From Eledone cirrhosa (taxonomy: Eukaryota), in NCBI GenBank assembly GCA_964016885.1, contig OZ024742.1:245768001-245832000 (forward strand): 64,000 nucleotides of DNA, in the 5' to 3' direction. A program made the translations under genes and the position numbers. This document shows, piece after piece, positions 4,463 to 43,291 of this stretch. Position 1 is the stretch's first letter, and every line of letters begins with the position of its first letter. Under the pieces are notes generated by a model that was given only the letters and a program-made list of their open reading frames with translations, had not been told where the DNA came from and did not search any database.

Positions 4463-4523
4463 TATTCTATTATATAAATTTCAAGGGTACCAAAACTTTG
4501 GTACGCTCTCATCAGATAAAATA
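4463..4523 (-). ncRNA. Minimal type I hammerhead ribozyme
   Basis: Minus strand: TATTTTAT-CTGATGA-GAGCGTACCAAAGTTTTGGTACCCTT-GAAA-TTTATA-TA-ATAGAATA. Confidence 0.75.
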
Positions 4524-5577: not shown

Positions 5578-8190
5578 GTTTTACGTCCGTTCTTCCACGC
5601 TAGCATGGGTTAGACGGGTTGTCCTGTTGTGGCCAGTGTCCAGTCGGTTGACCTTGTCTTGCTCATACAGGAACTGATTCTGACTTGATTTCTACAGCTG
5701 GATGCCCTTCCTAACACCAACCTCATTTACAGTGTGGGCTGGGTGCTTTTTTGCCGTGGCACCTCTGCGACCACTTTGCAGTGGGAGGGTGTGGGGGCAT
5801 ATTGTCTATATGCTTCAGTTTCGGCTTGTTCCTGTGGGGGGTCGGGTCTTCTGTATTACTGCGTGATGCCAGAGGTCACGGTCGTGTGTCATTGCTCTTG
5901 AGAGGTGCAATTGGGTAAGGTCGGCCTTTATCACCTCATCCCAGGTCTTCTTGGGTCTCCCCACTCCGTGGTTTCCATCGACTTCTAGTGCTCTGCACAT
6001 TTTATGCAGCTGTCATCCTTCATACGCATCACATGTCCATACCAACGTAACCTCCTCTCCTGCACACAGCATTTGATTCTTCTGATGCTCATTCCCTCTC
6101 TCAATTCGTTTATATTTTGCCGTTCGCGTATATTACTATTACACATCCATCGGAGCATGCAGGCTTCATTTCTTTCTAATCTGCGCAAGTCTTCTACAGA
6201 CAGTGCCGAGGTTTCACTTCCATGTAACATTGCTGTTCGTATACACGCATCATACAGTCTGCCTTTCATCTTGAGGGTAAGCCTTTTGCAGCTAGCAGTG
6301 TCAGTAGCTCCCTGAACTTCTTCCATCCCGTTCTTACCCTAGTTATTGTACTTTTCGAACACCCACCTCCGCTGCTAATTCGGTCACCTAGTTAGCAGAA
6401 GCTGTCTACTGTTTCTACAGAGCCCTCCCAGAGTTTGGTGGTGCTTGTTTTCTGTGGTTGATTGCTGCTTGCAGTCCCAGCGCAGCTGCTACATATGAAG
6501 CCTACATTCTTAGTTAAACTTCCTGAGATCCCACTACATCTCTGGTGTACCCATTGTTTGCATTTGGGGAAGAGGATGTAGTTCCTACCTACATCTTTCC
6601 TACATACTGAGCAAGGCCATTTCCCTGAGGGAGTCTGGGTTCTGTTTTCTCGTCTACTTACAAGGACCTTAGTCTTTGTCAGGTTGACTTTGAGACCCTT
6701 TCTTTCTAGTCCCTGCTTCCATGTTTGGAATTTCTTCTCTAGTTCCACCATGGATTCAGCTATAAGTGCGATATCATCCGCATACAGGAGTTCCCATGGG
6801 CATCCGATCTTGATCTCCTCCGTTATTACCTGCAAAACTATAATGAACAGGAGAGGGCTAAGAACGGAGCCCTGGTGGACACCGACCTGTATGCTAAATT
6901 CCTCGCTATATTCATTGCTAACTCTAACTTTACTGACTGCTCCTCTATACATGGCTTGTACAGCTTTCACAAGCCATTCATCTACTCCTAATTTTCTAAG
7001 AGCTCACCAGATTATAGCGCGGGGACTCTGTCGAAGGCTTTTTCCAGATCGACGAATGCCAGGTAGAGCAGCTTACTTTTAGCTAGGTACTTTTCTTGTA
7101 ACTGCCTCACAAGGAAGAGGGAATCAGTGGTGCTTTTTTCCTGGTACAAACCCAAATTATATCTCATTTAGTTTAACCCGGTCCCTAATCAACTGTGCTA
7201 TAACTCTTTCCGTTACTTTCAGGACCTGGTCCATCAGCTTTATACCTCTATAGTTTCTTCTATCTAGTGCATCACCTTTACCTTTGTAGCAGTTGACAAT
7301 GATGCTGCTGCACCAATCCTTTGGTATGAGACCCTCTAGTAAAACCTAGTTAACAATTTGTGTGGTTATGGTGTGACCTACCGACCCAGATGCCTTCAGC
7401 ATCTCGGCAGCTATACCCGATGGACTGGTTGCCTTCCCTGTCTTCATATCTTTGATTGCCTTACTACGCTGCTGTTGACTTGTACTGCTGGCCCCTCTAT
7501 AGGGTCCACTTGGGGTAGGGTCTCTTTTTCTCATGTATTCTCCTAGTTTAGTAATCTTTGATAATGGCTCTTCCATGCAGCTTTCATCTCAGCACTTGTG
7601 AGGGCAAGCTCACCATTATCATTCCGGATACACTTCTCTCCAATGACATCACAATTCTCTCTGACACACTGCCTCGCAATCTTGAAACCTCCTGTTTCTG
7701 GTCCTCATGTTGCAAAACATGCTTGAATTTTCTATCCTCTGCTTCCCTCCTAGTTAAGTATACTTGTCACCTAACTCTCCTCTTGGTCTCTATGTAATGT
7801 ACCCTGCTACCCCTGTTCTTCCATTCTTTCCATGCATGTCTCTTAGTCTTAACTGCCTCATCTACCTTACTGTTCCACCACCAAGTCACTCTCCTCCTCC
7901 CTGTGGACTTGCTCCAACCAAAGATCTCGTCCGTTGCCTTTAGTAAGTTATTTTTTTAGGAACTCCCAGTGCTCTTCTACATTGAATGTCTCTATCTGTT
8001 CTTCTTTACTGTCATAGGTGTCGAGTAGAATATCGTTAAACCTGTTACTGATTGAGGGGTCTTTCAGCTTCCAGATCTTTCTTCTCCAGGTTAGCTTCTG
8101 TATGCAAGTTCGTCTAGTTTTGATAGCGAGGTCGCTGACAATTAAGTTATGTTGGGAGGTACATTCCTCACCAGGAAAGGCTTTTGTGTT
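5546..8190 (-). mobile_element. RTE-clade LINE, 5'-truncated and frameshifted (end of APE region, RT, PHD insert, 3' UTR)
   Basis: [58 protein letters not shown]; the (ATC)n run on + at 5546-5577 is the (TGA)n tail. Confidence 0.92.
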
Positions 8191-8519: not shown

Positions 8520-10137
8520 TAGTTATGCAATAGATGTTTGGTGACGTGTGGACAACGTGTGAAAAATTAACTTCTTGTGTTTAGGCAATCACTATTGCGT
8601 AATCTCTTTAGGATAGTTATTCGTTCGTCAATACATAAGCCACACGTCGGATTTCCCCTTGCGTATGGCTTGGACTTAGTGATGGCTTTCCATTGAATGT
8701 AGTAGCCTATATTTGAGTCCTTGAGGGACCATACGTGACTCGCGAGTTTCGTGGATGAACGTCTGTCCGGGTATCTGAAGGTAGACTGGTGGTTCAGGAA
8801 ACACTCCTTGAATCGGCCCTCCGCCATGCCCACGTAGGATTTGACCTCCTGTGGTTCGTTTGGTCGGTTGGAAGTGACCACAGCTTCATAGATTACAGCT
8901 GGTGTGCTGCATTGCTGTTGAAGGGGGCAAGCTTCAGGCAAGAGCACCCTGGTGGGGGTGTTGCTCCTAGGGCTGCTGGTGATGTGGGCCTTCATGTTCT
9001 TAGCGCAGGAGTATCCTAGTTTAACTTTGTGTCGGTTAAAGATGGAGCGGTATTTATGACCTATGGGGAAGTGTCTATCTAAGAGGGCTAGAAATTGTTT
9101 TCCTACATCGGTTTTAACGTTGATTGAGAAGGGAGGAGAGAACCAGATAGTTTGTCTATTGATGCGCTTACTTTTCTTAATAGTGTTGCTGCTAGTGGGA
9201 GAGTAGGTGATAGGTTGTGAGAAGCCGCTGTTAGCCAACGCCGTGTTATAGTAGGGTGCTGCCCTGTCAAAGATAGCCGTATTAAAGGAGAGGTTTGATA
9301 TTCTAGTACTGATATTCCTAACGAAGTTTCTAAAAACAGTGGGAGGGTGGCATGAGTCCTTGTGAATGTAATTAAGTTTCTCGTTTAGCTTATGGAAGGG
9401 TATGTGTGTGTGTGTGCGAAGGTCTAAATTAATGTTTAAGAAATCTACGCTAGAGAGGTTGGTAGCTACTGTTATCCTAAGGCCTAACTCATTGAAGGTA
9501 GAAGCTAAGTCTTTTTTAAACCGGTCGAGGTCGTGACCACTTTTATGGCTCGATAAAGTCAGTCCATCGTCACGGTATATTCTCGTGTGGAAGTCCGGGA
9601 ATCTAACACGTAATATGTCTAAGATAAAAAGGCCAACCAAGTCACATACGTCAGCACTGTCAAACGATCCCATGGAGACGTCGAACAGGTCTGAAGATGT
9701 AGACTTCTTTGCCCAGGCTACTCCGTCGTTGAAGAGGAGGGTTTTCCGGCAGTGAGCGATGATTTCCCTGTCTAAACCATCGACGGTGGTATAAGTGGTA
9801 GCGAAGTCCAACGCTTTGTTTAACAGGGTCTCTGAGATCGACGGGTAAAAATCGACAATGTCAAACTGCGTGAACTTCGCTTTTTTGGATTTTAAGGAGT
9901 TAAACCACTTAATTACGGAGTCGCTGTTCTCCCACTGGGGCAGATTGGACTTGATCCTAATGGTCTTAACTATGTTTCTAAGTATGGCCTTACTGACTAG
10001 TCCCATATCTGTGCGTGCCGGATTTATTAGTCTACATGTGGAGTTAGAAGTAAAGTATACCTTGTGATCTTTCAGGGTGAGGAACGCCTCCCGCTTAGCT
10101 AGAGATTGTAGCATCTTATCTACCTTAAGGTCGGTGG
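8520..10137 (-). mobile_element. 5'-truncated Naiad-type Penelope-like element (RT + GIY-YIG), ORF 8567-10114
   Basis: FTQFDIVDFYPSI, FDVSMGSFDSADVCDLVG, IYRDDGL, CPLQQQC, VIYEA..SYVGMA. Premature TAA at the conserved NxRSE position. Confidence 0.9.
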
Positions 10138-10139
10138 CT

Positions 10140-10614
<475 letters not shown>

Positions 10615-10705
10615 CGAAAGAAATGTGGTAAGGAACCAGGTGGACCATAACGCACCAAAGTACTCAATACTTAGGGTAGTAGAGTGGGTAATAGGAACAA
10701 GTAAG

Positions 10706-10799
10706 ACCCCGACGGCTGAGCTCAAGCCGTTTCGACGGCTAATTCTGGACTGAATGAAAATTTATTCTGGTATTTAAATAGCCGAGCTTATCAAGGGGT
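10706..10799 (-). ncRNA. Type I hammerhead ribozyme, U3-A8 core variant (3' pseudo-LTR)
   Basis: ACCCC-TTGATAA-GCTCGGCTA...TAGCCGTC-GAAA-CGGCT(tgagctc)AGCCG-TC-GGGGT. Confidence 0.8.
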
Positions 10800-11986
10800 A
10801 ATTCCATATATGGTCAAAGAGATAATCACCAGGATTGGTCACATCACAAGTTAGTAGTAAATCTGTGATGGCAAATTAGTGGGGGAAGGGGTAGCTAAGC
10901 CTGCCGGTAGGAGAAAAAGGGGGAGGGGTGGAGTAGACCCATTCATGCGTTGGTAGTGCCGGCTACAGCTGGGCGTGAGGTCAAAGAGGATACGGGGGAG
11001 GGGGAGGAAGTCGAAACGGTAAGTAGAACAATGAAGGGTAAAACTATAAAAAGTAATGAGAATGAAAAAAATAAAATAAAAAAATAAGCAAAGTCTGGTT
11101 ACTAAGACTTAGTCTCTCACTATTGCTAGGCTAAAGAAATACATAAATAAATAAATAAACAAATAAATGAATAAAAGAATAGATAAATAAATAAAAAAAA
11201 ATATAATAAAGAATAAAAAAATAAATAATAATAATAAAAATAAATAGACTAGGTGGGACGGAAATAAAGGGACCCTTATAAGAGGTATAAGTGCGTGTAT
11301 CGTACGGTGACGGGTCAACAAAAGGGGGGGGGGGAGCCCAAAATACTAAAGAGACTACCACGAAATAATAAAGGTTTCTACCCCAATCACAGGGCCAGCA
11401 ACCACCCAGTGCAAGAAAGTAAACTAGTACGAGAATATAATTCAGGGTCCCGAAAAAAATACTAATGCTAACTCTAAGGGTACCGCCACGAAACAAAAAA
11501 GTCTTATACAAGCTACATGAAAGATCGTACGAAGTAAAAGTAAAGAACGGAAAATTAATACAGAAACACCCCCCCCCCCCCAAAAAAAAAAGAGAAAAAG
11601 AAGAAAGAAATACTGGATAAACAAGAAATTAAAGCAAAGATGCCACTAAGAAATATAGAAGGCACGGAAAAAAGCGCAGCGGTCGGAGAAGGGGGCAAGT
11701 ATCCGAAGTCTAACACCTCTGCTATAAAAAGCGGAGTCAGCCAAATCTATCATAGAATAGGGGAGGGAGTGGGGGTGTTGAAGCTACAAGGGACCGAGGG
11801 GCTACCTCGGGTGGGCGAGAAAAAGACGACGACAAAGAAAAGGAACTGGGGTAGAAGGACTAAGGAGAGATGGAGGGAAGAAGGAAATATAGAGGAAGCG
11901 ATAAAAGAATGTAAAAGAAGATCTTACGTCTCCATTGGCAAGAAGGGGTTACCCATTACAAAATAGGCAAGTGGGGTGTTATAGCC

Positions 11987-14356
11987 CTAGTCTAGCCCCC
12001 CCCGGTCATTATGGGGTTTGAGGGCGAGGTAAGTCCTACGTAATCGGTGTTTACATGCAGTAACCAGTTCATCTTTCTTGTTTAGGAGTTGGTCCGTCGA
12101 AAACAGCATTTGTAAAGTTTCCTCCGAGCATAAATTGCACGGACGGCGTCCTCCCGTGTAAGAGTTGGCTCTGGACAGTAATTTCCAAGTGAGATCATAG
12201 TTGATGTTGTTGTCCTTGAGGTCCCATATGTGGCCCGAAAGTGTAGTGGCGTGACGCCGGGCCGGGTTTCGGAAGGTATGTCTGTGTTGGTATAGCCGGG
12301 TCTTGAAGTCACATGTGGTTAATCCTATATAAGCTTTGTTGGAGGTGTCCGTGCTCACGTTGCACTGGTAGATCACATTACGGTCTCTGCATCTGTTGTC
12401 GAGGGGGAAAATGGATCTATCAGGACAGTTGCACCTCCTGGTCGGCTCTCCACTGCTATTTAGGTTGTTTCTTCCATCGGGGTTGAGTTTTTTGTTGTTG
12501 GAGGAGACGATGTTTTGTGCGAAGTTAGGTGTAGTGCTGTAAGAGAGTTTGATGGTATTTTTGTTAATTATGTTGTGGTAGCGGTGTTGTAGTGGGAAGT
12601 GTTTTTCAATGAGCCTAAAGAAAATTTTCCCGATGGGAGTTGTCACCTCGGCGTTGTGGGGAGGATTGAACCATGTTACATTGCGTGAGCGGCGGTGTCG
12701 CCTGCTGGTTCCGCTAACGGGAGCTGGACAGTAGGATATTCCCTCCCGGAAACCACTCCGCTTGAGGGCCTGGTTGTAGTAAAGCGCATGTTCATCGAAT
12801 ATCTTCTCATTAGCTGACAAACGGGATATGCGGAGGGAGATGTTTTTGACCAGGTTGTTGGTGATGTTCCTAGGATGGTTAGATCGGCGGTGGATGTAGT
12901 GCAGGTTGTCATTGGGTTTCCTGTATGGGTAGTACAGGTCATTATTGAGATCAAGGGTAACGTCCAGGAAATTAACTCGGGTCAGGGACGTTTGTAGGGT
13001 TATTTTAAATCCCCAGTCGCGGAAGAAGCTGATTAATTGTTTACGGACCCGATCTGTACTACTGGGGTTGTACCCTTTAAGGGTAAGGAGCCCATCATCA
13101 CGGTACAATCCACCACCGAAAGCAGGAAACATATCGGTGAGTTTGGCTATAAGGAATAATCCTATAAGATCTGTGACCTCCGCCGAATCCGTCGCGCCCA
13201 TACTGACGTCGAAGGGTGAGTCGGGAGCTCTTTTTATCCATTTGGAGTTGTCAAAGAGTAAGACTGTCTTCCTGGCGTGGAGGATGATTTTTCTTTCCTG
13301 GTCGGTGATGGGCACAAGTGCTTCGGCGAAGTCCAAGGCAGCAGTAAGTAGCGGTAAGGTGATTGAAGCATAGTAATTCTCTATGTCGAACTGGATAAAT
13401 TTAGTGTCTCGTTTATCCTCCATATTGCTGAACCATGAGATAACTTCCTGGGTGTTGATCCATAGGCTAAGTCGGGCGTGTTGCTTGACTTTTGGTATCA
13501 CACGGTCTAGGATTTTTTTGCTGATTCTCCCTATGTCGGACTTCGTTGGATTTATAAGCCTGATAGAAGGTTTACGGTCGAAATCGGATTTGTGGTCCTT
13601 CAGTGTGAAGTAGGGTGTCCATGGGTCTAGGGGTTCGGTGCGGTCGGCGACCCCGAGGCTGGAGGTAATTTGTTGTCCATCTCGATTAATGTCCTCGATG
13701 CATGAGTGGTTAGCCTTTTTATAGGTGGAGTTTAGGCTGCTCCTGATCAGTGTGTGGTATCTGTCGGGGTTGACAAAGTATAGGTTCCCAGTTTTATCCG
13801 AATGCACCATGATGTCATTGATGTTATCATACTCTGTTAAGTTGCTACGGAGTTTTTGTAGGAATCGGTTGTGTCTGGGTTTGAATTTAAGGTTCTTGAT
13901 CAGTTGGAAGAGGTCATTCTCGAAGGGTGAGAGCAAAGGGATCGGGGGGGGGGGGAGATTTGTAAGTAATAAATCCGAATCTCTCCTTGGTACCGAAATC
14001 CTGATTGTCGCAATATCTGTCGTAGAAAAAAGTTCTCCATCTAAGTCTTTTCGCAAATAGATCGATTTTTTTGCGTGAGCATCCGAAGGTAAAGTTTTTT
14101 CGGTGGGATTGGGATGTTCTTGGTAGAGAAGTCGATGTTGTGTTTTCGCATGGTGCGGGTGAAAGAGATTGAGCTTAGCGGAAAGGTCTGGATACGGCGT
14201 GGTAGGGTCGGAAAGTGCTCTACTATGGGGATAGGAGCTAGATAACGAAGGAAATGTGGTAAGGAACCAGGTGGACCATAACGCACCAAAGTACTCAATA
14301 CTTAGGGTAGTAGAGTGGGTAATAGGAACAAGTAAGACCCCGACGGCTGAGCTCAA
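11987..14356 (-). CDS. Penelope-like reverse transcriptase + C-terminal GIY-YIG endonuclease (789 codons; start uncertain, first ATG at 13810)
   Basis: FIQFDIENYYASI, FDVSMGATDSAEVTDLIG, GGLYRDDGL, NFLDVTLDL, WFNPP, CNCxxxxxFPLDNRC linker, VIYQC..AYIGLT, CNLCSEE, CKH. Confidence 0.92.
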   Translation of the reverse strand: MSSAVGVLLVPITHSTTLSIEYFGALWSTWFLTTFPSLSSSYPHSRALSDPTTPYPDLSAKLNLFHPHHAKTQHRLLYQEHPNPTEKTLPSDAHAKKSIYLRKDLDGELFSTTDIATIRISVPRRDSDLLLTNLPPPPIPLLSPFENDLFQLIKNLKFKPRHNRFLQKLRSNLTEYDNINDIMVHSDKTGNLYFVNPDRYHTLIRSSLNSTYKKANHSCIEDINRDGQQITSSLGVADRTEPLDPWTPYFTLKDHKSDFDRKPSIRLINPTKSDIGRISKKILDRVIPKVKQHARLSLWINTQEVISWFSNMEDKRDTKFIQFDIENYYASITLPLLTAALDFAEALVPITDQERKIILHARKTVLLFDNSKWIKRAPDSPFDVSMGATDSAEVTDLIGLFLIAKLTDMFPAFGGGLYRDDGLLTLKGYNPSSTDRVRKQLISFFRDWGFKITLQTSLTRVNFLDVTLDLNNDLYYPYRKPNDNLHYIHRRSNHPRNITNNLVKNISLRISRLSANEKIFDEHALYYNQALKRSGFREGISYCPAPVSGTSRRHRRSRNVTWFNPPHNAEVTTPIGKIFFRLIEKHFPLQHRYHNIINKNTIKLSYSTTPNFAQNIVSSNNKKLNPDGRNNLNSSGEPTRRCNCPDRSIFPLDNRCRDRNVIYQCNVSTDTSNKAYIGLTTCDFKTRLYQHRHTFRNPARRHATTLSGHIWDLKDNNINYDLTWKLLSRANSYTGGRRPCNLCSEETLQMLFSTDQLLNKKDELVTACKHRLRRTYLALKPHNDRGGLD

Positions 14357-14430
14357 GCAGTTTCGACGGCTAATTCTGGACTGAATGAAAATTTATTCTG
14401 GTATTTAAATAGCCGAGCTTATCAAGGGGT
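14337..14430 (-). ncRNA. Type I hammerhead ribozyme, U3-A8 variant (5' pseudo-LTR; one stem III mismatch)
   Basis: Same motif, but the stem III 5' strand reads CTGCT instead of CGGCT. Confidence 0.75.
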
Positions 14431-15309
14431 AATTCCATATATGGTCAAAGAGATAATCACCAGGATTGGTCACATCACAAGTTAGTAGTAAATCTGTGAT
14501 GGCAAATTAGTGGAGGAAGGGGTAGCTAAACCTGCCGGTAGGAGAAAAAGGGAGAGGGGGTGGAGTAGACCCATTCATGCGTTGGTAGTGCCGGCTACAG
14601 CTGGGCGTGAGGTCAAAGAGGATACTGGGGAGGGGAGGGTGAGGAAGTCGAAACGGTAAGTAGAACAATGAGGGTAAAACTATAAAAAGTACTGAGAATG
14701 AAAAAAAAAAGTTTTTGTTGTTGGAGGAGACGATGTTTTGTGCGAAGTTAGGTGTAGTGCTGTAAGAGAGTTTGATGGTATTTTTGTTAATTATGTTGTG
14801 GTAGCGGTGTTGTAGTGGGAAGTGTTTTTCAATGAGCCTAAAGAAAATTTTCCCGATGGAATATTTATTTTTATTATTATTATTTATTTTTTTATTCTTT
14901 ATTATATTTTTTTTTATTTATTTATCTATTCTTTTATTCATTTATTTGTTTATTTATTTATTTATGTATTTCTTTAGCCTAGCAATAGCGAGAGACTTAA
15001 GTCTTAGTAACCAGACTTTGCTTATTTTTTTATTTTATTTTTTTCATTCTCATTACTTTTTATAGTTTTACCCTTCATTGTTCTACTTACCGTTTCGACT
15101 TCCTCCCCCTCCCCCGTATCCTCTTTGACCTCACGCCCAGCTGTAGCCGGCACTACCAACGCATGAATGGGTCTACTCCATCCCTCCCCCTTTTTCTCCT
15201 ACCGGCAGGCTTAGCTACCCCTTCCCCCACTAATTTGCCATCACAGATTTACTACTAACTTGTGATGTGACCAATCCTGGTGATTATCTCTTTGACCATA
15301 TATGGAATT

Positions 15310-15403
15310 ACCCCTTGATAAGCTCGGCTATTTAAATACCAGAATAAATTTTCATTCAGTCCAGAATTAGCCGTCGAAACGGCTTGAGCTCAGCCGTCGG
15401 GGT
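15310..15403 (+). ncRNA. Type I hammerhead ribozyme, U3-A8 variant (inverted pseudo-LTR)
   Basis: Stem I 15310-15314/15399-15403, TTGATAA 15315-15321, GAAA 15376-15379, GTC triplet ending at 15398. Confidence 0.8.
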
Positions 15404-15413
15404 CTTACTTGTT

Positions 15414-15468
<55 letters not shown>

Positions 15469-15474
<6 letters not shown>

Positions 15475-16583
15475 AACATGACAAAGACTAAGGTCCTTGT
15501 AAGTAGACGAGAAAACAGAACCCAGACCCCCTCAGGGAAATGGCCTTGCTCAGTATGTAGGAAAGGTGTAGGTAGGAACTCCATTCTCTGCCCCAAATGC
15601 AAACAATGGGTACACAAGAGATGTAGCGGGATCTCAGGAAGCTTAATTAAGAATGTAGGCTTCACATGCAGCAGCTGTGCTGAGACAGCAAGCAGCAAAC
15701 AGCCACAGGAAACAAGTACCATCAATCTCTGGGAGGGCTCTGTAGAAACAGTAGACAGCTTCTGCTACCTAGGTGACCGAATTAGCAGCGGAGGTGGGTG
15801 TTCAGAAAGTACAATAACTAGGGTAAGAACGGGATGGAAGAAGTTTAGGGAACTTCTACCACTGCTAGCTGCAAAAGGCTTCTCCCTCAGAATGAAAGGC
15901 AGACTGTATGATGCGTGTATCCGAACAGCAATGTTGCATGGTAGTGAGACCTGGGCGCTGAAGGTGGAAGACTTACGTAGATTAGAGAGAAACGAAGCCT
16001 GCATGTTCCGATGGATGTGTAACAGTAATATACGTGAACGACAAAGCATAAATGAATTGAGAGAGAGACTGAGCATAAGAGGAATCAAATGCTGTGTGCA
16101 GAAGAGGCGGTTGCGCTGGTATGGACATGTGATGCGTATGAAGGATGACAGCTGCATAAAAAGGTGCAGAGCACTAGAAGTTGATGGAAACCGCGGAGTG
16201 GTTGATGACCTGGGATGAGGTGATAAAAGCCGACCGTACCCAATTACACCTCTCAAAGGCAATGAAACACGACCGTGACTTCTGGCGTCACGCAGTAATA
16301 CAGAGTACCCGACCTCCCATGGGTACAAGCTGAAGCATATAGACAATATGCCCCCCCCCCCCACCGCAAGGTGGTCGTGGAGGTGCCACGGCAAAAAAAC
16401 ACCCAGCCCACACTGTAAAGTGAACTTGTAGGCACCACGAAAAAGCACCCAGCACTCACTGTAAATGAGGTTCCTGTATGAGCAAGGCATGGTCAGCCGA
16501 CCAGACACTGCCCACAACAGGACAACCCGTCTAACCCATGCTAGCGTGGAAGAACGGACGTAAAACGGTGATGATGATGATGA

Positions 16584-22174: not shown

Positions 22175-23482
22175 ATATGTTCGTTCGAAGCTAAGAAGAA
22201 ATGTATGTGTATATGTAAGTAAAATAGTGTGTGTGCATGTAAGTACGAAGCTATGAGCAAAATATGTTAATATAAGGGTGTGTATGTGTGTATACAGAGC
22301 TGTGAAGTGAAAAGTGGGTGAGCATATATAGTCGGCCTGTATTAGTTGTAAGAGAAGATGTTAATGATCAGGAGAGAGTGATAAGAATCTAGGGGTGAAT
22401 GTACAAGCGCGTAAAGAAATTGGGGAAGTGAGTTGAGTCCAAGAGGGGAATAGGACCCAAGGTGGTGAATCAGACTCTGCTCAGTCCTGGTGCATGAGGC
22501 CTGTGATCCATGATGTAAACAGACACACAGGACTGAAACATGTTGGGAAGAATGACCAGGATAACAGAAATGACAGGCGACAGGAGAATCCAAACCGAGT
22601 CGTATGTCCCTCAAATGCTCAGCAAAACGGTCCACTGTATGGCTACCCGTTTGTCCAATGTATAAAGACCTGCAAAGGGAATACCGGAGGGCATAGACAA
22701 CGTGGGTGGATGTGCAGGTGAAAGAATGGTGGATATGGAAAGACCTGTTAGGGCCTGTGAGAGTGGTGAGGGAGGAAATAAAAGGACAAGTGTTGCAGAG
22801 GGGATGAGAACAAGGATGAGAGCCGGGTGGAGTCGAGGAAGAGGACAAGAAGGAACTGCATACCGGGAGGTCGCGGAGGTTGCGGGTGTGCTTAAAAGCA
22901 GTAATGGGTGGGTTTAGAAAAAAGCGAGAAGTGACGGGGTCAGAAGAGAGGATGCGGAAGGAATGGAGGATATATCACCAGAGTGGTAGGGTGATGGGGT
23001 GGCAGGTGAGAGGGAAAGGCGCGGGTGAAAGCAGTTTGGATCAGGGTGGGGCGATATCCACGCTGGATGAAGCAGGAAGCCATGTGAAGAGAATGGGTTT
23101 CGAAATCATCGTCCTGGCTACAGAGCCGATGAAGATGGAGGGATTGGGAATAGGGTATGGAGTGTTTGGTGTGGGTTGGATGGGAGGAGGTGAAGTCAAG
23201 GTAAGAGTGGGAGTCTGTTGGTTTAATGAAGATGGAAGTAGAGAGGATGTGATGAGAGTGATTAATAGATAGAGAGATATCTAGAAAAGCGACAGAAGAA
23301 TCGGAGACGGAGGCGGTGAAAGTGAGAATAGGATGGAAAGATAGGACAAAAGAAAGAAAGCAGTTGAGCTGTTCTCGTGATAGAGAGGTGGTGCCGATAT
23401 AGTCATCGATATAACAACCGTATAGCTCAGGAGTCGGTCCAGTGTACTGGGAGAAGATCTGGGCTTCATGCATCGTATACAC
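21745..23482 (-). mobile_element. 5'-truncated Neptune-type Penelope-like element (RT C-terminus, Cys linker, GIY-YIG, pseudo-LTR)
   Basis: CYIDDYIG, AFLDISL, KPTDSHSYLDFTSSHP, PCSHPLCNTCPFI, FTCTSTHVVYAL..CRSLYIGQT..RFAEH, PLGLN. Confidence 0.9.
21826..21861 (-). ncRNA. Decayed minimal hammerhead (G12 to A)
   Basis: TCTT-CTGATGA-A-GGA(ctagca)TCC-AAAA-CG-TT-AAGA. Confidence 0.65.
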
Positions 23483-23604
23483 GTTTAATCACATATTACA
23501 TATGTTTCACTGGCAATCAGCTCAAGGAATGATTGATTATATTCGTTCCTCACTCTGATATGTGTTCTCACATGTAGACTCATGTCCCAAATCCTTAACT
23601 TCTA

Positions 23605-24430: not shown

Positions 24431-24476
24431 AGAAAGTAAAACAAAGAAGCCTTCAATACATCAAAAGTCTTTATTA

Positions 24477-24514
24477 GCCGACAATGTTTCGTCCTATTAA
24501 GGACTCATCAGGGC
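24477..24514 (-). ncRNA. Canonical minimal type I hammerhead
   Basis: GCC-CTGATGA-GTCCT(taat)AGGAC-GAAA-CATTG-TC-GGC; GUC cleavage triplet. Confidence 0.85.
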
Positions 24515-24747
24515 AATTAAAACAACAAGAAGTATTATCGGCCAATACAAGCCGGAAACTCCGAAGAATATGGAGTGTACATACACTAAAGTATTGCAAG
24601 ATTATGGGTAAAAATATATAATAAAAATATATAATAAAAATTACTAAGGAGGTGTATAACATTAAGAACCATATTACAAATATAGTCCAAAGCAAAAAAA
24701 CCCTAGAGCTAAACAAAGGTGGTTATATAGAGCAGGAATTATATATA

Positions 24748-27631: not shown

Positions 27632-29870
27632 CTAATGGATACAATTTGTACTACTAGAACGTTTAGGTTTATAATAAAAGTATGAATTAGAAATAGCGTG
27701 GGGGCAAGAAGAGAATATCTCAGACTTTCTATTAAGTAAGGATTCGCTAGAGAAAATTATAGAGTGTGTCTCGAGGATACAGAGATTACAAAATTTAGTA
27801 TGTGTAGAAAGGTTATTAGAGCGTGCTACTAAACGCCAGTTAAGGCTATATGGTATATTAGCGCCCTTAAGATCCCAGATATAATGTGCTAAAGAAGTAG
27901 AATTCTTAAACTTAACATGTTTGAAATTAGAGATATGAGAGTTAAACCTAGTCTTAAAAGTGTTAGATGTAGAGCCTATATAAGTTCTATTAGAGGAATT
28001 AGTTATAACTACGCAAGCATAGACAATGTTCTTAGAGAGGCAGTTACCGTTTAAAGGGCAGTTAGCACTCACTCTACAGTTGCACTTCCGGGTGTTATTG
28101 GTTGGCTCAAGTGGTGATGCATTACACGTAGGATTGCTATTAGATAAGGTCTGTTCTGGTGGTAATGCATTTCCAGATCTGTTCAGACTAGTAATATGTA
28201 GAGAGGAGAATCCATCCCTAATTTTCCTATTGTTAGTGCTAGCTAAATGAGAACTAATATTAGGGGTGGTAGAGAATGAAAGTTTAATAACATTTTTATT
28301 AAAAATACTATGGTATTTATGAGAAGGGGGGACATTTTTCTCTAAGATAGAAAAGAAAGACCTAGGGATATTAGTTAATACTTCCTGATTATATGGCGGG
28401 TTAAAATAAGTATTTAATCGCCTTCTATTTTTATTCTTACCGACTCTACCATTATCAAATATCCCACCATCGAGACTAGGGTTACTACAAGGATTAGTTA
28501 AAACCGCATTCTTATAATCAGCCAAAATTTCATTAAGTCTATTACCGTTTCTACCTCCAGTAGATCTGCCGCTGTCCGGAATCCCATCAAAAGGATTAGG
28601 GCCAATGATAGGATCAGTAGAAGCAACATTATTAGAATAAGATCCGGCAAAATTATCACCAATGAGTGAGCGCTCAGAGGGTTCGACTTGTTTCCTAGAG
28701 GTATTATATTCACTATTACGAGTCCCGTGGGTTAACTTATGGATGGGTTCAGATACACCTATGTAATTTTTACGGTTATTATGCTTCCTACTCCCATTCA
28801 TGGCCATGTTATATGATATTATGTTATTATTATTAAAAATAAGCGGAGACTTTCTAAGGTTACTATTATTATAATGTATTTTACTAGAGTAACCGGAATT
28901 TGCTAGGGCATTATTATAGTACTCCGCATGTTCATTAAATGTTCCTACGTCCTTAGAGAGTGTGGAAATCCTATTAGATACACCCTTAATTATAGAGCTT
29001 ATCATAGATTTGGGGTGGTTAGAATTGGGACTAACATAAGAAAGTATTTCATTAGGCTTATGGAAGGGTTTAAAACTATTGGTGACCAAGTCCAAAGTCA
29101 CATCTAAAAAGTTAACCGCTCTATCATTTCTATCCATCGTGATCGAAAGGTTATAGCTTTTAAAAAACTTATAAAGCTTCTTCTTATTATGCTCGACATT
29201 GTTGGTGCTAGAGTTAATTACAAACAATGCATCATCACGATATAGTCCGCCTATAAGGTGCGGGAAGGTAGCATATAGTTCATTAAGGAGGAACAACCCA
29301 ACAAGATCAGTAACCTGGGCCGAATCACTCGAACCCATTGTAACGTCGAAATTATTGGGCGTGTTTTTACGGGTTCAAAATGTGTCCTCAAATTTAATAA
29401 TAGTTCTACGGGCTGCTAGTATAATATCAACCTGTGATCGTGTAAGGCTGGACACTCTCATGGCCAACATTAAAGCTTTATTGAGGAGGATGGGTGAAAT
29501 TGATGTGTAGTAGGCATCAATATCGAATTGGATAAACTTATTAGATTCAAGTCTATTAATCCCAGAGAACCAATCTATGACTTCCTTAGTGTTCCCCCAT
29601 AGGTTAAAATTAACTTTATCCCTAACATCTGGTATAATAAGGTCAAGGATTTTTTTTACTGATAATGGCTATATCGGACTTAGAAGGACAGATGAGTCTA
29701 ACAGAGGGGTTACTAATAAAATCAACCTTATGATCCTTAAGAGTGAATCTCGGTTCTCGAGGGTAATATGGCTGGGTATACTTATCGAGGCCGAGGTCAG
29801 AGACAATTCTAAGACCCTCACTATTGATGTGGTTCAAATTCTCAAGCGTAGTTTTTTTATAATTTCTATG
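27632..29870 (-). pseudogene. Naiad-type Penelope-like RT/GIY-YIG, 5'-truncated, with a frameshift and a nonsense codon; the AT-rich 3' region probably extends to ~24430
   Basis: [81 protein letters not shown]. Confidence 0.9.
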
Positions 29871-31014: not shown

Positions 31015-32390
31015 AAGACAATGAAAGATATGAGACAGCCAGAGATAGTGGCTGAGATGCCGAAAGTATCTGGGATGGTGGGTCACACCATAGTTACCCG
31101 TATTGTAAACCAAGTAATACAAAATGGTGTCATACCCAATGATTGGCGTAGCATCATCATTGTCAACTGCTATAAGGGCAAAAGAGATGCTCAAGACAGA
31201 GAAAACTATAGAGGCATTAAGTTGGTTGACCAGGTCATGGAGGTTACAGAAAGAGTTAACCTTGATGAAATGCAATTTGGATTTGTGCCAGGTAAAAGTA
31301 CCATTTTGCTCTCTTCCTTGTGAGGCAACTTCAGCTAAAAGTAAACTCCTCTACTTAGCTTTTGTTGACTTGGAGAAAGCTTTAGACAGAGTCCCCCGCT
31401 CCATTATCTGGTGGGGTTTTAGAAAACTAGGAGTAGATGAGTGGCTTGTGAAAGTTGTACAAGCCATGCATAGAGGAACAGTCAGCAAGGATAGAATTAA
31501 CAATAACTATAGTGAAGAATTTAGCGTGCAGGTAGCTGTTCCTCAGGGCTTTGACTTTAGCCCTCTCCTGTTTATTATTGTCCTACAGGATATAACAGAA
31601 GAGTTTACAACTGGCTACCCATGGGAACTTCTGTATGCAGATGATCTAGCTCTCATAGCTGAATCTATGGCAGAATTAGAGAAGAAATTCCAAATAGAAG
31701 TTAGCAGTAGTATAACCTGGAAGCATATCCTAGAATCAAATGGTCTTAAAGTTAACTTGTCAAAGACTAAAGTATGTAAAAAGGAAAATAGGGCAAGTTA
31801 TGGGTACATAAAAGATGTAATGGAATCACAGGCAGGCTATCAAAGAATGTAGGTTTTATATGCGGCCGATGCACAGGTGCAGTTAGTAGCAAGTGCCCAC
31901 AAGATACTAGCTCCTTCAAATGTTAAGACGGCTCTGTAGAAATAGTTAAATGTTTCTGTTACTTGGGCGACCAAATCAGCAGTGGGGGAGAGTGTTCTGA
32001 AAGTACAGTAGCCAGAGTAAGAACAAGATGGAAAAAGTTCAGGGAGCTACTACTGCTCTTGGCTACAAAAGGTTTTTCCCTTAACACGAAGGGCAGATTG
32101 TACGATACAGGTATACGAACAGCAATGTTACATGGTAGTGAGACCTGGGCACTGTGTGCAGAGGACCTGTGAAGATTGGTAAGAAATGAAGCCTGCATGC
32201 TCCGATGGATGTGTAATAGCAATATACACAAACGGCAAAGCGTAAATGAACTGAGAGAGAAATTGGGCCTAAAAGGGATCAGAAGCAGTGTGCTAGAGAG
32301 GAGATTGTGTTGGTATGGTCATGTGATACGTATGAAGGATGACAGCTATATAAAAAGGTGCAGCGCAATCAAAGTTGACGAAAGCTATGA
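31015..32390 (+). mobile_element. Degenerate RTE LINE RT fragment
   Basis: IPNDWRSIIIVNCYKGKRD..NYRGIKL, AFVDLEKALDRVPR, LLYADDLAL, RRLCWYGHVIRM. Confidence 0.9.
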
Positions 32391-42061: not shown

Positions 42062-43006
42062 TAGAGATGCCTACTGGCTGTAGTAGGTTTTACTTTGTAT
42101 TTAGGTAAGGCGGGTCTTCTCTATTACTGAGTACCGCCAAAGGTCTCGGTCCAGTGACATTGTCTTGGAGAGGTGTAAGTGTGTGAGGTCAGAATTTATC
42201 AGCTCGTCCCAGGTTTTTCTGGGTCTGCCTACTCCGTAGCTACCGTTTATCTTTATTGCCCTGCACTTTGTTATACAGCTGTCGTCTTTCATGCGCATCA
42301 CGTGACCATACCAACGTAGCCTTCTCTCGAGTAAACAACATCTGATCCCTCTTATTTCTAATTTTTTCCTTAGTTCGCTTATGCTTTGCCGTTCACGTAT
42401 GTTACTATTACACATCCAGCAGAGCATGTAAGCTTCGTTCCTCTCTAGTCTGCGTATATCCTCTGCACACAATGCCCAGGTCTCACTGCCATGCAACATT
42501 GCTGTTCGTATGCAGGCATCATACAACCTGCCTTTCATTCTTAGGGAGAACCCTTTAGCGGCTAATAGTGGTATAAGCTCTCTGAACTTTTTCCAACCTG
42601 CTCTGACTCTAGCTACTGTACTTTCAGAGCACCCTCCCCCACTGCTGATTTTGTCGCCCAGGTAACGGAAGCTGTCCACTATTTCTATAGAACCCTCTGC
42701 GCAATTGAAAGAGCTAGTATTTTGTGGGCACTTGCTGCTACTTATTGCACCAGAGCACCGGCCACATGTAAAATCTATGTTCTTAGTTAGCTTACCTGTG
42801 ATCCCACTACATCTTTTATGCACCCATACTTTGCATTTGGGACATAAAATGGAGTTTCTACCTACGCCTTTCCTACACACTGAGCATGGCCATTTCCCGG
42901 AAGGGACCGGCGCCTTATTTTCTTTCCTACAAACTAGAACTTTAGTCTTAGCCAGGTTAATTTTAAGGCCTTTTGATTCTAGGCCGTGCTTCCATGTTTG
43001 GAATTC

Positions 43007-43008
<2 letters not shown>
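42062..43008 (-). mobile_element. 5'-truncated RTE LINE with PHD insert
   Basis: [53 protein letters not shown]. Confidence 0.92.
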
Positions 43009-43071
<63 letters not shown>

Positions 43072-43079
43072 GGTAGATG

Positions 43080-43138
<59 letters not shown>

Positions 43139-43170
43139 TTCATGCATATATATATATATAAAACGGTAGA

Positions 43171-43211
<41 letters not shown>

Positions 43212-43291
43212 TTCATGCAAAGCTTCCGAATATTGTCTTTTCATGGATGCTGGCCAAGCGCCACAACTTCGATTTTACTCACTTCCACTCT

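Follow-up and report, generated by a model that had tools for sequence, protein, structure and literature searches.

Genomic insertions mark the predicted cut site of a U3-A8 hammerhead in a Hydra-clade Penelope-like element of Eledone cirrhosa

A type I hammerhead motif is carried by a young, high-copy Penelope-like element (PLE) of the Hydra clade in the genome of Eledone cirrhosa. The sequence evidence makes it fairly probable that the motif is a partial ribozyme, likely cutting a minority of the element's RNAs in vivo, behind C17, without being required for every insertion. The motif was found in a 64,000 nucleotide stretch, here termed the window (GCA_964016885.1, contig OZ024742.1, positions 245,768,001 to 245,832,000 of the forward strand); unsigned positions refer to the window and signed positions are counted from C17. 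Of most interest are the base-exact footprint at the predicted cut and the walk of the lineage through four states of the 3-8 pair, while the U3-A8 core alone was already known.

The hammerhead lies at 15310-15403 (+) in the inverted 5′ arm of an insertion and was delimited by sequence and motif scan. Stem I has 5 bp (ACCCC at 15310-14 with GGGGU at 15399-403), the core U3 U4 G5 A6 U7 A8 A9 (UUGAUAA) is at 15315-15321, and stem II with its 37-nt loop II, assigned from the sequence, fold prediction and subfamily alignment, spans 15322-15375. The GAAA at 15376-79 is followed by helix III at 15379-15397 (6 bp by sequence and fold prediction, 15379-84 with 15392-97, a count that includes A15.1-U16.1; loop UGAGCUC) and by the GUC triplet with C17 = 15398. 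The sequence and motif scan place the predicted cut between 15398 and 15399 (+). The three helices surround the core and the open ends are in stem I, a type I arrangement. U4 G5 A6 A9, G12 A13 A14, A15.1-U16.1, H17 and G10.1-C11.1 are all present, with 0 of these 12 core columns changed, 5 of them preset by the search pattern and 7 free. Apart from a single additional U, positions 15379-15397 make up an 18-nt palindrome, able to pair intermolecularly too.

The same sequence is found in the downstream pLTR at 10706-10799 (−), and a third copy in the upstream pLTR at 14337-14430 (−), where the distance from C17 to the ATG is 191 nt. The anatomy confirms the hammerheads named at these three places by the first-pass annotation, with two corrections. 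A perfect stem III was ascribed to all three copies and holds for two, since by sequence and fold it is broken in 14430-14337 by G15.3>U at 14359. The long stem II is a 6-bp helix (CGGCUA 15325-30/UAGCCG 15368-73) together with the pair G10.1 15322-C11.1 15375, but no single helix, being interrupted by a 2x1 internal loop. The motif is not a chance occurrence, as the 19-nt 5′-half pattern had 7,070 matches in the genome against 0 with the reversed control. Rfam cmscan at E<=1 matched none of the three window copies, so standard searches miss the motif, as had been anticipated.

The three hammerheads sit in the pLTRs of one insertion flanked on both sides by (TA)n. On the minus strand it comprises the downstream pLTR and tail (10608-11246), ending 103 nt past C17 at a (TA)n tract, and an ORF for a reverse transcriptase (RT) with a C-terminal GIY-YIG (11987-14151). 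A 148-nt duplicate of ORF bases 12489-12636 lies at the junction between the arms (14712-14859, −), and the inverted, 5′-truncated arm (14862-15418, +) ends 20 nt past C17 at a (TA)n tract. The window ORF has a frameshift after the ATG, its frame being closed by a stop after 36 codons, and Phe takes the place of the final Cys in its CxCX5C linker. Three other genomic copies (L032, L034, L042) translate to 717-719 aa and contain RWR, DKT, the CxCX5C linker, the C-terminal GIY-YIG and the CxxC/CxH round E and N. The Hydra-clade PLEs described by Craig et al. 2021 (PMC8557442) share the C-terminal GIY-YIG, an RWK-like motif (here RWR), DKT, the linker and the CxxC/CxH, as well as a (TA)n target and a hammerhead near the 3′ end. 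In the family studied here a TA repeat follows 99 of 131 copy ends, the hammerhead is in the pLTR, and tandem and inverted copies are present. Pfam matched the element ORF to no family; the Hydra-clade match was judged by eye against the published definition and supplement alignment, and similarity to Hydra-1_Obim was likewise assessed by eye. By domain order and motifs, the element is assigned to the Hydra clade of Penelope-like elements. The Naiad type suggested at first pass was rejected, as the endonuclease is C-terminal, the motif is DKT and not DKA, and a canonical, full three-helix hammerhead is present. Naiads are described with an N-terminal GIY-YIG, a CxC domain and DKA, and without canonical hammerheads (PMC8557442). 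Identity was 96-100% in 69 scored protein matches, mostly free of stops, which indicates a young family. Near-identical full-length units also occur in head-to-tail arrays with a period of ~3.53 kb and one hammerhead per unit (L042/L043, L032/L050/L057, L049).

The 5′-half search pattern was left open at positions 3, 7 and 8, and its 7,070 genomic matches comprised 5,282 U3-A8 (derived by subtraction), 1,729 C3·A8, 48 U3·G8 and 11 C3-G8. A Watson-Crick 3-8 pair, which is U-A in the window copy, is thus found in 5,293 of 7,070 copies family-wide; with C3-G8 in just 11, the family consensus is not CTGATGA. One old subfamily has U3·G8 in 20 of 26 copies. The tree based on ORF DNA (37 copies, from 37 of 49 aligned rows) is a ladder leading from U·G to U-A, then to a C3 grade and finally to the young U-A copies including the one in the window. 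Its end branches shorten along the ladder from 0.04-0.06 to under 0.02, and its direction is based on copy age, the tree being without outgroup; a search for a C3-G8 family relative to root it found none. Two pLTR trees were made as well, the first with 92 of 176 rows, from which a length filter excluded the old subfamilies, and the second with 97 of 125 rows. The monophyly of 13 C3 rows, a group defined from the second pLTR tree ahead of the ORF tree, was rejected on the ORF tree (AU p = 2e-10), and the C·A state covers about a third of the trunk in summed branch lengths. The 11 C3-G8 copies look sporadic, and the two in the ORF tree were placed apart within the C3 grade.

Position 3 is always a pyrimidine and position 8 always a purine along the lineage. 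The wobble of U·G resembles that of protonated C·A. Judged from these sequences, U3-A8 as it stands today has been restored, the lineage having amplified in its absence, and 'compensatory', the term of the first-pass annotation, is too simple for U3-A8 in this family. Strict compensation is not supported, in view of the 1,729-copy C3·A8 grade on the lineage trunk. Nor is the U3-A8 core itself novel: natural C3-G8 to U3-A8 covariation was published in 2011 (Perreault et al., PMC3088659) and ~1,300 PLE motifs with U3-A8 in Schistosoma in 2014 (Cervera and De la Pena, PMC4209133). The covariation of 2011 is the same as here, whereas its available text holds no within-lineage U·G/C·A series. In a deep mutational scan of a type III hammerhead the pair was rescued by C3G/G8C only, in the data available from that source (PMC9901934), and full activity of U3-A8 is therefore not to be assumed; a literature search for the C3U + G8A double change gave nothing usable.

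Conservation was compared across nine subfamilies, using the 3′-half columns outside the preset pattern (7 core, 5 stem I, 6 stem II, 10 stem III and 7 loop III, with column −31 counted as loop II and not stem II). Two of these 35 columns varied, compared to 59 of 110 in the flanks and loop II (p = 1e-7); one of the two changes creates a U-A pair and the other a G·U wobble. G12, A13, A14, A15.1, U16.1 and C17 were fixed although outside the search pattern, and at the free core position N7 all four bases were found. In the alignment of genomic copies for covariation that had been proposed, the four 3-8 states U-A, C·A, U·G and C-G were recovered; no two-sided compensatory change was present among the nine subfamilies. 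The loop III palindrome was invariant, a single gain (T>A at −6) extends the loop/helix III palindrome, and helix III is 6 bp long in the young subfamilies, 5 bp in the old ones. The tail from +21 to +103 is conserved like the ribozyme, with 6 of 80 columns varying, and part of the conservation may therefore reflect protein binding or a promoter.

The predicted cut, placed after C15398 already at first pass, coincides with a sharp footprint in the genome. At 55 loci genome-wide both head-to-head arms begin at G+1 with one A/T between them, and this joining base is untemplated. The same double-arm test repeated at +2, −1 and −4 gave 0 loci each, genome-wide. A test at 0/0 returned 32 loci and was set aside as a control, since its middle base is the natural, templated one and hence uninformative for untemplated joining. 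Four of the +1/+1 loci were read whole and had one arm to +20, the other to +103, and TA-rich flanks. Arms breaking between −7 and +11 were tallied by eye. For the young U3-A8 arms (first 100 of 671 rows, 19 dropped as point changes or indels), 25 of 81 junctions fell at +1 versus 23 over the whole of +3 to +11 (Poisson p = 9e-17), and six rows at position 0 mostly showed microhomology. For the mostly C3·A8 arms (first 100 of 1,241 rows, 26 dropped) the count at +1 was 14 of 74. The +1/+1 junctions likely record RT running off RNA that had been cleaved after C17 in vivo and then adding an untemplated base. An open-access literature search for PLE truncations at the cut site returned only PMC11167929, by which absence from print is not established.

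The footprint was denser in some subfamilies than in others. Pure A/T double-arm junctions numbered 21 in 49 loci of the window subfamily (by eye), or ~3.8 per 1,000 arms with an arm total of ~5,500 estimated on the basis of 26 in 100 listed rows out of 21,053. In the mostly C·A group there were 19 in 41 loci, equal to 1.0 per 1,000 of its 19,382 arms, about a fourfold lower density. The young comparison favours U3-A8 by 42 to 7 among 50 listed loci, with 1 mixed (binomial p = 1e-6). The old pair of subfamilies displayed no effect of the core state, with 6 junctions in 9,278 arms of the mostly U-A member (0.65 per 1,000) and 2 in 2,921 arms of the mostly C·A member (0.68 per 1,000), both small counts. 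Confounders of the core-state comparison are the 5-bp helix III and greater decay of the old subfamilies, and the C·A-group tail is carried by some U3-A8 copies (1 of 8 checked).

After C17, genomic copies ended at +20 in 50 of 131 cases, at +103 in 62 and at the cut site in 0, counted over overlapping loci that are incompletely deduplicated. By analogy with the anole element (PMC11167929), the +20 and +103 ends may correspond to two internal sites of RT initiation, both located past the hammerhead. Genomic matches to the 3′ half of the motif numbered 65,481, those to the 5′ half 7,070 and those to the tail 44,418, and most insertions are tiny head-to-head palindromes within (TA)n. Tens of thousands of inserts are palindromes of 130-250 nt in (TA)n made from the +20 and +103 arms (L240, L256, L261, L358, L360), and repeat annotators would see in them a family of MITEs or SINEs.

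Among 89 arms anchored in the tail, 51 started at −61 to −23, 10 beyond the motif, 5 at 0 to +2 and 23 elsewhere, and 57 of 64 partner arms started at −61 to −23; frequent start positions were −44, −40, −36 and −34. The main insertion-start zone, −47 to −33 from C17 (15351-15365, +), is a candidate transcription start zone. Initiator-like TCATTC/TCAGTC words place an A at 15354 (−44) and 15358 (−40), and TATTTAAA is present at 15329-15336, corresponding to −69 to −62 in the window subfamily. These words and TATTTAAA we take to be promoter-like. The sequence thus holds a candidate promoter from which transcription may start within loop II. With such a start only read-through RNA would carry the whole ribozyme, and since most insertions start inside loop II, cleavage would be a minority fate.

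The scheme that best fits these observations is the following. RT would initiate at two internal sites, +20 and +103, as in the anole element, and proceed to the 5′ end of whichever RNA serves as template. The short palindromic inserts, which are very common, would derive from transcripts started in loop II. Transcripts from read-through would contain the entire ribozyme and be trimmed by it; if cut they would yield inserts beginning at G+1, and if uncut the long and full-length copies. Most insertions would likely be copied from RNA that is uncut or misses the front half of the ribozyme, and the 3-8 pair would tune the rate of cutting and not be a requirement for transposition. Against cutting in vivo counts that just 5 of the 89 tail-anchored arms start at 0 to +2, and junctions may be drawn to the G4 run at +1 through microhomology.

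A variant of this scheme, quite possible in our judgement, is that cleavage is real and occurs mainly in a dimer through the palindromic helix III, or needs a protein of the element. The invariant loop III and the palindrome-extending change at −6 favour it, as does the predicted stability of the palindromic duplex, −30.7 kcal/mol versus 2 x −7.1. In published work PLE hammerheads typically act as dimers (PMC4209133; PMC6765202), and the anole ribozyme required protein (PMC11167929). The motif has the palindromic helix III and loop 3 of the dimer type, but not the absent or 1-2 bp helix III of the minimal dimer type, and a helix of 6 bp needs no partner. Neighbouring ribozymes in tandem copies are moreover ~3.5 kb apart.

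The proposal nearest to that of the first-pass annotation, an efficient monomer ribozyme with a strictly compensated U3-A8 that cuts every transcript and perhaps feeds a circular RNA template, is improbable. In fold predictions helix III is stable alone (−7.1 kcal/mol), stem II is the first to form in prefix folds, and the youngest sister subfamily has the active fold as its minimum, at ~17% of the ensemble. The footprint is also densest in young U3-A8 copies, and the ~3.53 kb arrays fit rolling-circle copying. In the window subfamily, however, the predicted minimum-energy fold is the hairpin AGCCGU-CGAA-ACGGCU, which hides the GAAA, and the active fold lies 2.4 kcal/mol higher at ~1% of the ensemble. 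Moreover, the C3·A8 grade amplified on the trunk, and long copies cross the cut site, which requires uncut or religated RNA. The competing hairpin arises because the word AGCCGTC is repeated in stems II and III, on their 3′ strands at 15368-15375 and 15391-15398. Deletions between the two repeats were seen in some short inserts (e.g. L266, L277).

Equally improbable is that the motif no longer cuts and has been retained as a structure for protein binding or as a promoter, the pile-up at G+1 being an RT stall or a joining bias of the G4 run: long stretches of the lineage with a wobble or mismatch at 3-8, the footprint of the mostly C·A group, the conserved tail and the dispensability of cleavage in vitro for another PLE speak for it, but the core nucleotides G12 to C17 listed above are fixed without being required by the search pattern, an RT stalled ahead of stem III would be expected to stop at C17 (0) sooner than at +1, the six rows at 0 are mostly microhomology, and both arms end at the same base with an untemplated A/T, like a template end.

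Returning to the putative partial ribozyme, its relatives in print share some of its features. The Cercyon PLEs of Schistosoma mansoni (PMC4209133) are likewise of type I, located in the pLTR, with U3-A8 and a palindromic helix III region; their motifs are minimal and almost without helix III, whereas in the Eledone motif helix III has 6 bp and a loop of 7 nt, and loop II measures 37 nt. The published Hydra motifs (PMC8557442, File S2, all rows) have C3-G8, a stem III of 3-4 bp, loops of 1-3 nt and a short loop II, and the window family departs from them in core, helix III and loop II alike. On sequence grounds, it is this combination that makes it distinct, and helix III of the hammerhead, which was called full-size at first pass, is longer than in these Hydra-clade motifs. 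Large helices III as in the window family are known from fungal and protist PLE hammerheads, e.g. in Serpula lacrymans (PMC4209133); those elements are endonuclease-less, telomeric and non-animal, and their hammerheads were shown to be monomer-active. Poseidon PAc of Anolis carolinensis (Frangieh et al. 2024, PMC11167929) also has two internal RT starts, two copy ends and an AT-rich target, with a tail of 30-40 nt compared to 83 nt here. In PAc, RT initiation is internal and ribozyme mutants still insert in vitro. According to that study, no RNA-seq reads of PAc end at the cut site, whereas insertions of the window family begin there.

Other elements are numerous in the window. A canonical minimal hammerhead with C3-G8 at 24473-24517 (−) scored 31.7 bits with Rfam Hammerhead_1. 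In L171 the end of the ORF is followed by this motif too, which makes the Hydra-like family with the ORF at 27632-29374 (−) its probable source; that third Hydra-like family had 150 scored matches at 94-100% and a long Asn/Gly-rich insertion between the RT and a PWFNPP-like motif, and a scan of its loci found a canonical hammerhead at one locus. A second, older Hydra-like family is represented by a truncated ORF at 8567-10138 (−), with 150 scored matches at 86-94% and an inverted duplicate of 124 nt at 10134-10257. None of its 15 loci that were scanned had a hammerhead within 1.5 kb. Another eight motifs that resemble hammerheads, each having a C3-G8 core and a helix III that is short and palindromic, are located at 2555, 2886, 5393, 37422 and 51163 (+) and at 4515, 38678 and 50444 (−); 4515/5393 and 50444/51163 are inverted pairs, expected of other PLE families. 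Fragments of a PLE-like RT (YIDD) and GIY-YIG of a different clade lie at 22342-23488 (−). Older LINE-like RT fragments are at 15469-16500, 5644-6691, 31118-32387 and 42101-43240, with an RVT_1 match at 31118-31849 and a PHD finger at 42104-43240, and the inverted arm adjoins one of them via the (TA)n tract at 15419-15469.

On the role of PLE hammerheads, the 2014 PLE paper (PMC4209133) states that in vivo evidence was lacking, and in the 2024 reconstitution cleavage was dispensable (PMC11167929). With the junctions of tiny head-to-head insertions, RNA 5′ ends can be deduced from no more than an assembly, and in this family such junctions fall at the predicted cut with single-base precision. 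Four natural 3-8 states occur in one lineage, with copy numbers and relative ages, and can be compared side by side. More tentatively, the genome may hold a fossil record by which the in vivo activity of a PLE hammerhead can be quantified. Starts at G+1 would record self-cleavage, and their frequency would track the core along U·G, U-A, C·A and U-A, with C·A cutting weakly, the promoter would lie in loop II, and the ribozyme would act as a tunable brake on read-through and on transposition of long copies.
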